A stretch of 64,000 nucleotides of DNA from Mustelus asterias (taxonomy: Eukaryota), in assembly GCF_964213995.1 (NCBI RefSeq), contig NC_135824.1:11346001-11410000 (forward strand), written 5' to 3'. The translations under genes and the position numbers were made by a program. Of the stretch, positions 1,436 through 60,526 are shown one piece after another (the stretch's first letter is position 1; every line of letters begins with the position of its first letter). Below the pieces are notes generated by a model, which was given only the letters and a program-made list of their open reading frames with translations, was not told where the DNA came from and ran no database searches.

Positions 1436-1598
1436 GTAAGAGTTTTAACAACACCAGGTTAAAGTCCAACAGGTTTATTTGGTAGCAAATGCCATTAGCT
1501 TTCATTTGCTACCAAATAAACCTGTTGGACTTTAACCTGGTGTTGTTAAAACTCTTACTGTGGTTACCCCAGTCCAACGCCGGCATCTCCACATCATG
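1436..1598 (+). mobile_element. Penelope-like pLTR fragment with inverted 5' arm
   Basis: 56-bp perfect inverted arms (1436-1491 / 1503-1558); flanking TSD actacacaagctat(g) at 1422 and 1599. Confidence 0.75.
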
Positions 1599-16520: not shown

Positions 16521-16980
16521 TTATTCTTGCAGCAAGAACAGTTAGTCAACAATCTGATCGATAATTATTGTTATCATGATGTTATCATTAGAATCCCTAC
16601 AGTGCAGAAGGAGGCCATTCAGCCCATCAAGCCTGAACCCCAACAATCCCAAATTCGCCAAACAATCCCACCCAGGCCCTAGCCCTGTAGCGCCACATAT
16701 TTACCCCATTAATCCCCGGACACTAAGGGCAGAATTTTCCTGTCCCGCCCACTACAGTTCCATGCAAAGGTCAGGTGTCCTCGGCCTTGGGGCAAGTGTA
16801 TCTGGAAAATTCTGCCCAATGGGTCAATTTAGCACAGTCAATCAACCTGACCCCACACATCTTTGGAGTGTGAGAGGAAACCAGCGCACCCAGAGGAAAC
16901 CCACGCAAACATGGGGAGAAAGTGCAGACTCCACACAGTCGCCCAAGGTCAGAATTTAACCCGTGTCCCTGGCGCTGTGA

Positions 16981-17090
16981 AACAGAATTCCCACTCACCT
17001 GAAGAAGGGGCTTGGAGCTCCGAAAGCTTGTGTGGCTTTTGCTACCAAATAAACCTGTTGGACTTTAACCTGGTGTTGTTAAACTTCTTG
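16981..17090 (+). mobile_element. Penelope-like pLTR fragment inserted in a V-SINE
   Basis: Shares ctaccaaataaacctgttggactttaacctggtgttgtt with the other copies; duplicated gctgtga on both flanks; contains the hammerhead. Confidence 0.7.
16996..17032 (+). ncRNA. Minimal hammerhead ribozyme motif (intact core)
   Basis: CAC-CUGAAGA-A-GGGGCU ugg AGCUCC-GAAA-GC-UU-GUG; stem I CAC/GUG and 6-bp stem II. Confidence 0.7.
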
Positions 17091-17479
17091 CTGTGAGACA
17101 GCAGTGCTAGCCATTGTGCCACCATGCCACTCATTGTGCTTTTATCCTTCTGTTGGGCTGTATGCAGAATGATGATGCCATGATGTGATCTATGTAATGC
17201 TTGGAACTACATATACACTGTGTAAAAGCAGTGGAGGGCTATAGGAACAGGTTCTATCTGTACAACAGACCACTTACCAAGGAATAAACAGAAAATACTG
17301 GAAATGCTCAGCAAGTCTGGCAGCATCAGTGGAGAGAGAAACAGAGTTTAGGTTCAGTCTGTGACCCTGACCTCACAGACCTGAAATATTACCTTTTGTT
17401 TTTCTCTCTACAGATGTTGTCAGACCTTATTTTCAGTCTTTCATGGGATGTGGGCATTGCTAGTTGGGCCAATATTTAT

Positions 17480-42050: not shown

Positions 42051-42156
42051 CTAACAACACCAGGTTAAAGTCCAACTTTGACCTGTTGGACTTTAACCTG
42101 GTGTTGTTAGACTCCTTTCTGTGTTTACCCCAGTCCAACGCCGGCATCTCCACATC
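42051..42156 (+). mobile_element. Penelope-like pLTR fragment with inverted arm (PEX11A intron)
   Basis: 26-bp perfect inverted arms (42051-42076 / 42085-42110); TSD ttgattttacta at 42042 and 42157. Confidence 0.75.
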
Positions 42157-42863
42157 TTGATTTTACTACCCTTTCCAGTCTGTGACCCCCGACTGTGCCT
42201 TTACAGCGCAAGGCTGGTGTCAATGTAAACTATAAATTATTCAGCATTTGAGGATGAACTTGGTGCAAAATAAACACCGGCAAATTCCCAAACACGAGCT
42301 ATCCAGACATACGTGACCCGCATCGCATCCAGGCACTCAAAGTAGTTTGATTTGTCTTCAAATCTAACTGGATTCAAAATGTACAGGTAGCATTGATATT
42401 CAGACACTGGCCTGCATTACTATAAACCTGGGCTACTGCGATTAAATGCGACTAAAATGTCTTCGAACTACAACAGAAAACGACAAAACAAACACACAGA
42501 TGAAAGCACAATTAAAATAAATGCACTTAGCTATTGAAATGCAAAGAGAATAGGGCATTTGAGATCATGAAATTAAACACAGGATTGAAATACTTTAGAC
42601 AGGCCTCAACTGTCAGCCATAGTTTGTAAATACATGGGAAAATAATGTTTGCTTTCGGTTACAACATGGATAAATATTTTAATTACAAGCGAGCTAGGTT
42701 AGAACATTAAACACATTTGTCAAAATGGCAGACAAGAAAAAGGTCAATAATCAAAAAAAAAGCTATAAATGAAAATGCAACACTACTAAAATTATAAAAT
42801 AGATTCCACCTGTCGGATTGATGTTGAAAGGCAGTGTGAAAGTTTAATTACTAAAAACCATAC

Positions 42864-48016: not shown

Positions 48017-48153
48017 CACTCCACCTGACGAAGGAGCAGCGCTCCGAAAGCGAGCGGCGTTTGCTACCAAATAAACCTGTTGGACTTTAACCTGGTGTTG
48101 TTAGATTTCTTACTTTGTTTACCCCAGTCCAACACTGGCATCTCCACATCATG
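48017..48153 (+). mobile_element. Penelope-like pLTR fragment
   Basis: Same family; TSD acaccagag at 48008 and 48154; degenerate hammerhead. Confidence 0.75.
48021..48057 (+). ncRNA. Hammerhead motif, probably inactivated
   Basis: CCAC-CUGACGA-A-GGAGC agc GCUCC-GAAA-GC-GA-GCGG. The conserved U of the NUH triplet is replaced by G and stem I has a mismatch. Confidence 0.6.
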
Positions 48154-51104: not shown

Positions 51105-51365
51105 ATGCTGAGCTACAGTAAGAAATATCTGGCAGTTCCAACTCCTTCTGAACATAACTTTAATGAAGGTGATGAAGAAGACTATTACCTGAAGGATCCA
51201 GAGCTGAGAATCGATGAGTTGCCCCAACCCTTCAGGATGATCGATAAATTAATTGGCTGCATTGTTGACAATGCTTGGGAAAGCATTGAAAGAAGGGAAG
51301 CAGAAAGGGAGGCTGAAAAATTAAAGATCAAACCACCTACTCGTGAATCATCAGAGGAAATTCAG
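51105..51365 (+). CDS. WDR93: WDR93 first coding exon (MLSYSKKYLAVPTPSE...LPQPFRMIDKL...SEEIQ)
   Basis: Acceptor tttcag| before 51067, ATG at 51105, donor CAG|gtagga. Resembles human LEVPPPTEKDW...LPQPYRMINKLV...GEIQ. Confidence 0.9.
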
Positions 51366-51869
51366 GTAGGAGAATGTATTGTAATCCAGCAAATGTCACT
51401 ATTCAATTCTGCATCATTTTATCATGTTTGCTGTAACCAATTGTCTAGGTGTTGTCTGTAGATACATCAAATAACTCATGTAAAAATGCAGAGGGCACAC
51501 ATTCTGTAGTTGATTCATAGAATCAGTATATGCTACAGCACAAGAGAAACTTTGGTTCAACAATTCTACTTCCATTTCTTTCTCCACTTGAGCCACCAAA
51601 CCCCACTCCACTTCTGCCTGCTCTCCCTATTTGATCTTTAATATTTGTCTCTCCAACATTTTAAAAAACATTTTCTGAAAGACAATGGTTGTTGCTGGAG
51701 TATATTGCCGTGCACACAAGCAGTCTTACAGTACTTCACCTAGATGTCTGTTGATCATGTGTGAGATAGATATGAGATAGCAATAATTATTGTCAGGGCT
51801 TATTGTGGTCCGGATAAATTGTCAGAATGTGATTTTTTTTGGTGAATTGTCTTTAATATAAATATCAAA

Positions 51870-54750: not shown

Positions 54751-54952
54751 GTTCCTGGCACTTTAAACTGTTTTGCAAATTCTGTGCATGGAAATTATAT
54801 CTTTGCTGGAATATCTGAAGGTGTAGCTGTTCTGAATATGGAGGATCATACTGTTAAATCTGTTTGGAATATGGAAGGTATCGAGATTGCTGCCCTTCAA
54901 GTCAGACACGTTGGAGGCCAGCTTTATCTGCTCGCTGCCCTGGATGACATGG
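54751..54952 (+). CDS. WDR93: WDR93 coding exon 2 (VPGTLNCFANSVHGNYIFAG...AALDDM)
   Basis: 202 nt, acceptor ttttgaacag|G, donor G|gtattt. Open frame resembling human ...DYVFIGG...APVDEM. Confidence 0.9.
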
Positions 54953-55960
54953 GTATTTACTTGAAAATACTTATTGTTTAAAAGTTGATTCTCCTAAATT
55001 TCTCCCATCCTCTTGACAAAGACTCTAATTTCTGGGAGGAGGCGGGAGGAGTTTTGAATCCATTGTCATTCTTAACATACAAGTTCATTCAGTAAATATA
55101 CATCAGCAGGCTATCTGCTTGTGGCTTTTTCAAAACTTCACTAAGGCAAGGGTTCAGCACTGTTTGAGTGAAAAAAATGTCTAATTGATAACCCCTATGC
55201 CTTGTTACTCTGACAAGATGAGACAGGGGATCTGCTCACCTCTTCTCATGAGACGTGGTGCACCAATCCTGCACTCTTGGAATGGAAAATTACATTGCTA
55301 GGGATACCTGATTACTCTTCTTGAACTATTGTGCCATTCTTGGACCACTTGCTGCAATAGATCATCCTTGTGCGTTTGCATTCCAAACCGCTAACAAAGT
55401 TTGTTGAGGCTCCAGCGGCCTCAGCGAACCAGTCCAAGCTGATGCATTCCATTCTGCTGTTTGCTCGACACCCCCCCATAAATATAGTGATTTCAGCAGA
55501 ATGTGGGACCCCAATCAAAGATCCCAAGTTTTACTACTAAAGTAGCAATAAGGAAAAAGGTGGAACCATCTAGTAATAATATTTTTTTAATTCATCATGG
55601 GATATGGGCAAACCCAGCATGCATTGTCCATACACTTAGGAAAGTGTTGGGCTGCCTACATGAAGTCCATGTGACCCACAGTGCTGTTATGGTGGTAGCC
55701 CAGAATTTTGATCCTGTCACAGTAATAAGGATGGAATATTTTGAATGAAAATATATATTTTTATGACCTATCCTTTTTCTCTGCCAGATACTGTTTACCT
55801 GTTGCACATTACCAGTATTTTCTGTTTTTATTGCAGATTTAAAGCGCTCAGTTTTTCCTCATACACATGTATCGGTTATGCATTATTATAGACCCACTGT
55901 ACAAATCCTTTTCTCTTCACTCATGGGTTCATATGTATTTTCTCTCCTTTTGTGTTTTAG

Positions 55961-60380: not shown

Positions 60381-60526
60381 CATGATGTGGAGATGCCGGC
60401 GTTGGACTGGGGTAAACGCAGTAAGAGTTTTAACAACACCAGGTTAAAGCCCAACAGGTTTATTTGGTAGCAAATGCCATTAGCTTTCGGAGTGCTGCTC
60501 CTTCATCAGATGGAGTGGATACCTGC
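60381..60526 (-). mobile_element. Penelope-like pLTR fragment
   Basis: Same family on the minus strand; short duplication gacatg on the flanks; intact hammerhead core. Confidence 0.75.
60477..60513 (-). ncRNA. Minimal type I hammerhead ribozyme motif in a Penelope-like insert (intact core)
   Basis: Minus strand reads CCAU-CUGAUGA-A-GGAG cagca CUCC-GAAA-GC-UA-AUGG: stem I CCAU/AUGG, stem II, GAAA, palindromic mini stem III, CUA cleavage triplet. Confidence 0.75.

Follow-up and report, generated by a model that had tools for sequence, protein, structure and literature searches.

Minimal hammerhead motifs in truncated pLTRs of an abundant, probably Neptune-type Penelope-like element of the shark Mustelus asterias

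Minimal hammerhead ribozymes in the pLTRs of vertebrate Neptune elements are already described (PMC4209133), as are the type of element that carries them and the shape of its insertions. In fishes they have been reported from Xena, Poseidon and Neptune elements, with no cleavage of monomers and low cleavage of dimers (PMC4209133). The hammerhead of an anole element cleaved only with the element's protein, and insertion of that element in vitro did not need the hammerhead, mutants of which did not block it (PMC11167929); what the hammerhead does in Penelope-like elements is, according to PMC8557442, still unclear. TATA and Inr-like motifs are described in a pLTR (PMC3846280), and a TATA-less internal promoter in the Penelope of D. 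virilis (PMC2377424). A tally of hammerheads in introns versus intergenic regions is given in a preprint whose text presents no sense/antisense test (bioRxiv 10.64898/2026.07.22.740005). No shark is named in the two supplementary files of PMC4209133 that were searched, and no shark-specific description of Neptune/Penelope hammerheads was found in the literature searched.

The window analysed here is a stretch of 64,000 nucleotides of the M. asterias genome. Its short hammerhead-bearing inserts are very probably 5'-truncated pLTRs of a very abundant, likely Neptune, Penelope-like element with the known minimal type I hammerhead. Cleavage is predicted to require dimers or the help of a protein, and solitary stubs in introns are therefore likely to be idle.

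Hammerhead-bearing stubs in the window

BLAST within the window found five pieces of the Penelope-like family, rather than the three copies counted in a sequence-only reading of the same DNA. The three hammerhead motifs of that reading are all present, and two of them have a whole core. The first (60513-60477, minus strand; CCAT CTGATGA A GGAG-CAGCA-CTCC GAAA GC TA ATGG) is intact, with stem I CCAU/AUGG, the core CUGAUGA, an extra A, stem II GGAG/CUCC, GAAA and the palindrome AGCU (60485-60482); from established hammerhead numbering, the cut is predicted between 60481 and 60480. It is held by a 146-bp, 5'-truncated pLTR stub of subfamily A (60381..60526, minus strand), whose start is 46 nt upstream of the predicted cut and whose end is at the ORF start codon (the tail end), and which has a 6-bp target duplication, CATGTC (60532-60527 / 60384-60379). 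The second motif (16996-17032, plus strand; CAC CTGAAGA A GGGGCT-TGG-AGCTCC GAAA GC TT GTG) is also intact, and its stub (16981..17089, plus strand) belongs to subfamily B, the one with intact ORFs, starts at -53 from the predicted cut, ends at the no-tail site and sits inside a SINE-like repeat with a 7-bp duplication, GCTGTGA. This repeat of ~320 bp, presumably HE1/V-SINE, dominates the window (16600-17130 and over 20 other places), and the stub interrupts one copy of it.

The third motif (48021-48057, plus strand; CCAC CTGACGA A GGAGC-AGC-GCTCC GAAA GC GA GCGG) has a broken core, in a stub (48017..48153, plus strand) that starts at -37, ends on ATG and has a 9-bp duplication, ACACCAGAG. The G noted earlier in place of U16.1 is there (48052), but it is not the sole change, for a C at 48055 breaks both stem I and the AGCU palindrome. 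All three core-bearing stubs are solo, each is nearest a different subfamily, and all are collinear with full elements. The two remaining pieces, both on the plus strand and both without the 5' half of the core, are a two-armed (fold-back) insertion without a whole core (1437..1598), of which the inverted arm ends at site 1 and the forward arm at site 2 and which has a 15-bp target duplication (1422-1436 / 1599-1613), and a two-armed insertion of the pLTR 3' part with no core (42051..42160). An Rfam scan of the window matched no hammerhead family. The same database gave weak matches to mir-3015, below the gathering score, at the fold-backs 1440-1554 and 42051-42110; the consensus of mir-3015 resembles the pLTR arm, and that family may derive from such an insertion.

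By Pfam matches, the minus strand carries exons of perilipin and PEX11 and the plus strand those of WDR93 (window 9.9-55 kb), and we take this gene order, perilipin (-), PEX11 (-), WDR93 (+), to be that of human 15q26. WDR93 exon matches at 54766..54960 (PF21030, plus strand) and 16 kb beyond the window lie on either side of the motif at 60477, which is therefore intronic and antisense, as had been proposed. The accompanying claim that the copy at 48021 is sense in WDR93 holds only by way of an inferred non-coding exon. This copy lies ~3 kb upstream of the likely first coding exon (51105..51370, plus strand, 3' end approximate), which presumably resembles the human WDR93 N-terminus, and it is likely to be in a 5' UTR intron, in sense, given a non-coding first exon near 44.9 kb. 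Two motifs at ~44.9 kb, one ETS-like and one that we take to be X-box-like, suggest a shared promoter there.

The carrier element and its hammerhead

Copies elsewhere in the genome continue upstream into a GIY-YIG frame, and at one locus (L057) the final CACATC-ATG of the stub opens the ORF. Thirty ORF-start loci were collected; 10 whose frame stayed open throughout the stretch and 4 with a whole upstream pLTR were examined, and of these 14, chosen because their frames are long or their 5' pLTR is whole, 9 have an unbroken ORF of 892 amino acids, all with subfamily-B pLTRs. The full unit is 3021 bp long and consists of a pLTR, a single 892-aa ORF encoding RT with a C-terminal GIY-YIG domain, and a second pLTR. 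Hammerheads are present in both pLTRs, and in L242, L244, L248, L249 and L250 their cores lie on either side of the ORF at a distance of 3021 bp; the core is ~130 nt upstream of the ATG and 213 nt downstream of the stop codon. Thus, the Penelope-like pLTR origin that was supposed from the inserts themselves is borne out by a partner ORF with both domains between pLTRs.

In Pfam, the ORF matches RVT_1 (E=1e-9) and, at the cut-off, GIY-YIG. The latter domain is of the CCHH type, with a pair of Cys between its Tyr motifs and a pair of His following them, conserved in an alignment with 9 homologs, and in the RT-EN linker, CHSNLCKTC, three Cys are invariant in 10 of 10 alignment rows. The nearest named homologs are shark proteins (84-94%), followed by turtles (~44%), and a PDB sequence search with the ORF gave 0 matches. 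A CX2-5CxxC linker between RT and EN indicates Neptune or Nematis (PMC8557442); the element is likely to be of the Neptune clade, an assignment that rests on a linker common to Nematis, Neptune being the likelier in a vertebrate. Some Penelope-like elements retain a spliceosomal intron; one across the ribozyme was considered here, as the pLTR carries donor-, branch- and acceptor-like words, with no GT-AG joint among those listed, which come from contigs only.

Other copies have features of their own. In L263, L277, L279 and L283, 4 of 30 consecutive subfamily-B copies, an AT-rich insertion of ~70 bp with a 17-bp duplication occupies the last ORF codons (about 1175-1235, element strand); these copies are a sub-lineage still transposing after it gained the insertion. 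At L055 (G000:C476:127500-137499), a truncated copy lies within a 28-bp minisatellite and is duplicated with a 4349-bp period. A shark epn2 isoform annotation (P0025) includes a piece 87% identical to the ORF of the element, by either exonization or mis-annotation.

The high copy number supposed earlier is confirmed by exact genome counts, with 19,511 whole A/C cores and 44,522 (subfamily B) and 42,274 (A) right core halves, each against 0 control matches: there are about 10^5 cores in the genome, alongside 69,652 endonuclease candidates. An intron sample was taken as 140 tiles of 10 kb (35 each) inside four giant CUB-domain genes, two per strand, whose orientation was inferred from matches to CUB exons; in one gene, a part with a match on the opposite strand was excluded. 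These 1.4 Mb hold 117 pLTR pieces and 61 intact cores, the latter among 86 core-bearing pieces, which amounts to roughly 3x10^5 pieces and 1.6x10^5 intact cores genome-wide if the four sampled genes are typical.

A minimal-hammerhead descriptor matched 50 times in a 1.4-Mb genome sample, 49 of these in the Penelope-like family, and once in the reversed control; given also the absence of control matches to the exact patterns, the motifs are not due to chance. The one remaining match (L189, minus strand near offset 252; CUGACGA ... GAAACAUU) is a minimal hammerhead of another family, and therefore other ribozyme-bearing families exist.

Stem covariation was assessed in 51 rows, comprising the 3 window copies and 48 non-redundant copies of the 61 intact ones in the sample. 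Stem cells are paired in 93.7% (slid controls, at most 52%), with U-A versus C-G in stem I in 11 rows and A-U versus G-C in stem II in 8. Two-sided changes number 28 cells against 7.4 in shuffles, but since the rows are related, intact cores were preselected and subfamily B is misaligned by one GT repeat, these represent few fixed compensatory events between subfamilies rather than dozens. The covariation that the sequence-only reading saw among the window copies is therefore present in the family as two-sided changes, except that its contrast of GGAG/CUCC with GGAGC/GCUCC is CpG-type decay at 60493.

The invariant core is kept across subfamilies, whereas N7, H17 and both stems vary. Among 84 cores, N7 takes all four letters, H17 is U in 45, A in 25, C in 13 and G in 1, and the extra A between 9 and 10.1 is found in all 84, its position being part of the pattern by which cores were located. 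The G10.1-C11.1 pair is GC in 41, GU in 6 and AU in 1 of the 51 rows. There is no helix III; as had been read from the window, it is reduced to the palindrome AGCU, the palindromic 15.2-16.2 being GC in 80 of 84 cores. The motif of the family thus has every published sequence feature of the minimal hammerheads of Penelope-like elements, and on these features a ribozyme is predicted. In energy folding of the three window copies, the minimum-energy monomer fold is not a hammerhead, and cofolding gave no clean double hammerhead. Cleavage of dimers was reportedly described by Lunse et al.

Insertion ends and rival explanations

The 3' ends of the pieces in the intron sample fall at two fixed sites 38 nt apart, after CTTAC (51 pieces) or at CACATC-ATG (59), which account for 110 of 117. 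Inverted pairs, of which there are 36 (72 of the 117 pieces), have one end of each site in 33 cases and two alike in none, and target duplications of 7-14 bp, clustering at 11-14 bp, were found in 28 of them. Diverging pairs outnumber converging pairs by 36 to 7, and only 2 same-strand neighbours within 300 bp occur among the 117 pieces, giving no tandem-unit pattern.

At the 5' side, 20 of the 64 starts that lie between -60 and +25 relative to the cut fall at -37..-33, a number reached in 0 of 5000 uniform simulations, and the letters upstream of these starts are unrelated or fold-back. The peak belongs mainly to an older subfamily (16 of 45 copies, versus 4 of 70 in subfamilies A, B and C); starts at -43..-33 were found in 4 of 30 ORF-start copies, and at -36 in 2 of 30 consecutive B copies. 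In the four commonest variants of subfamily B (84 copies), a TATA-like word lies ~30 nt before the -36 start. The peak is likely to mark the RNA start. Stalling of the reverse transcriptase at the ribozyme fold was considered as a cause of the -36 peak and is unlikely, as a stall would be expected 3' of the stem.

Most templates were probably copied uncut, since 16 of the 30 ORF-start copies (two with core deletions) traverse the 5' ribozyme and none starts at -1/0. Starts at the cut amount to ~2% (2 of 100 B copies, 3 of 115 sample pieces); in the intron sample, the 3 starts at -1/0 among the 64 in range are not significant (p=0.19). The drop in exact counts is larger at the cut than across the three bases that follow (8.2% versus 2.9% in B, 8.6% versus 4.2% in A), and of 6 B copies lost among the first 100 listed, 4 are substitutions or H17 variants and 2 are true starts at 0/-1. 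With substitutions, H17 variants and changes of U16.1 contributing to the drop, any cleavage footprint is at most ~2%. Near-full-length copies also start at +50..+57, before CTTAC (L211, L213, L219 and L226), and at +73..+78, near an acceptor-like CCCCAG (L220, L221 and L237), together 7 of 30.

The protein of the element probably nicks both target strands and primes reverse transcription inside the RNA at the two sites, as shown in vitro for the anole element (PMC11167929). Where priming takes place in the 5' pLTR of the RNA, the enzyme would run off the RNA 5' end after 100-140 nt, which would explain stubs that begin just before the ribozyme. Run-off cannot explain every stub, however, because those with the motifs at 60477 and 16996 start at -46 and -53 and the peak is mostly that of one subfamily. 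Selection on active masters probably maintains the ribozyme, most templates being copied uncut, while inserted stubs would decay neutrally whatever their orientation in host genes.

Tentatively and with less than even confidence, the ends may further be read as a fossil map of the RNA. Transcription would start ~36 nt before the cut, 30 nt after the TATA-like box, leaving the hammerhead at the 5' end of the mRNA. Each insertion would take two primings at the two fixed sites, one for each target strand, and the strong-stop-like stubs of 100-140 nt primed in the 5' pLTR would end at the cap site or, in ~2%, at the ribozyme cut. If the fossil map is true, a cut would strip the mRNA of its cap, and the stubs would be genomic evidence on when the hammerhead of a Penelope-like element acts in vivo.

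The idea that the motif arose by chance or is a pLTR signal without catalytic function could appeal to the anole element, whose hammerhead mutants still allowed insertion in vitro (PMC11167929), but it is extremely improbable here, as variation is confined to positions at which a hammerhead tolerates it (N7, H17 other than G, compensated stems) and the descriptor matched 50 times to 1. It is rather less improbable, though still unlikely, that the short inserts propagate by themselves as a non-autonomous family resembling retrozymes or SINEs and are not truncations of full elements. Such a family would accord with the older subfamily, in which the 16 of 45 copies that share a start at -37..-33 stand beside only 4 of 45 that reach 95 nt upstream, and with the derivation of vertebrate retrozymes, one chondrichthyan included, from pLTRs in a 2026 preprint (bioRxiv 10.64898/2026.07.22.740005). 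The window copies, though, are solo, of different subfamilies, collinear with full elements and different in their starts (-46, -53, -37), the lengths of A, B and C form a continuum, and the scarcity of close same-strand neighbours (2 among 117 pieces) is further evidence for truncation of full elements.

If intact ribozymes cut host pre-mRNA, sense intronic copies would be purged or selected to lose the core, an explanation offered earlier for the window, where the core is intact in the antisense intronic copy and broken in the likely sense one. In the four-gene sample, the corresponding strand tally shows no bias: intact cores number 32 sense and 29 antisense, and broken ones 10 and 15 (Fisher p=0.35), with a further 17 sense and 14 antisense pieces without a core. 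A strict foldable class comprises 26 of 42 sense and 21 of 44 antisense copies (p=0.20). The inverted pairs balance strands by construction; the 45 unpaired pieces (intact 16 sense and 5 antisense, broken 3 and 10; p=0.004, post hoc) lean opposite to the prediction, probably by chance. Core decay is at the background rate, non-CpG core sites being changed in 22 of 840 cases (2.6%) and downstream sites in 55 of 2640 (2.1%; p=0.35). On the other side, U16.1 is altered somewhat more often (8 of 213 copies) than its neighbours (2 and 3 of 213). The change to G seen at 48052 is also present in 3 of 213 other copies (L003, L040 and L214) of different subfamilies, one being the 5' pLTR of an ORF-start copy, and could reflect either a site prone to mutation or spread from master elements whose ribozyme is dead. 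Published minimal hammerheads of Penelope-like elements are, moreover, described as not cleaving as monomers (PMC4209133) or as protein-dependent (PMC11167929). Purging is therefore highly improbable, and the pattern in the window is best read as chance on two copies, though a selection effect under ~1.5-fold may be compatible with the sample. Introns apparently tolerate tens of thousands of intact cores in sense orientation, in keeping with a ribozyme whose monomers are silent.

Comparison with known systems

The shark motif shares with the minimal hammerheads of metazoan Penelope-like elements, as described in PMC4209133, the type I core, the extra nucleotide between 9 and 10.1, G10.1-C11.1, the palindromic 15.2-16.2, a short helix I, many subfamilies and a predominance of solo copies. 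The scale differs, with ~10^5 cores in the shark compared with ~4,000 in coelacanth and ~9,000 in Xenopus (PMC4209133). Non-LTR retrozymes (bioRxiv 10.64898/2026.07.22.740005) likewise have type I hammerheads related to pLTRs and many monomers, but they are defined by head-to-tail tandem hammerhead units, whereas the window copies are solo or inverted.

With the EN+ Penelope-like elements, including Neptune, of PMC8557442 and PMC3846280, the shark element has in common a single ORF of RT and C-terminal GIY-YIG, the CCHH residues and the CX2-5CxxC linker, as well as partial tandems, an inverted 5'-truncated copy, target duplications, a 30-40 bp tail at one end and TATA/Inr-like pLTR motifs. Compared with what is described there, the one-tail rule is near strict in the shark (33 of 36 pairs), no microsatellite targeting is evident among the duplications listed, and no spliced intron was seen among the joints listed, which are from contigs.

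The Poseidon element PAc of Anolis carolinensis (PMC11167929) has two internal priming sites that define the tail, and the two end sites of the shark element match these. Nicking and extension of both strands, uncut RNA as the main template and a protein-assisted hammerhead were shown for PAc in vitro and would, by inference, apply to the shark element. PAc belongs to another clade and has no Cys linker, unlike the shark element, and its ribozyme overlaps the start codon, with priming sites ~115 nt inside the ORF (PMC11167929); in the shark element, the ribozyme is 130 nt upstream of the ATG, with one site at the ATG and the other 38 nt before it. With intact young ORFs, ~10^5 copies and fixed insertion ends, the shark family is a good test bed and would place a Neptune-type element beside the single one studied in vitro.
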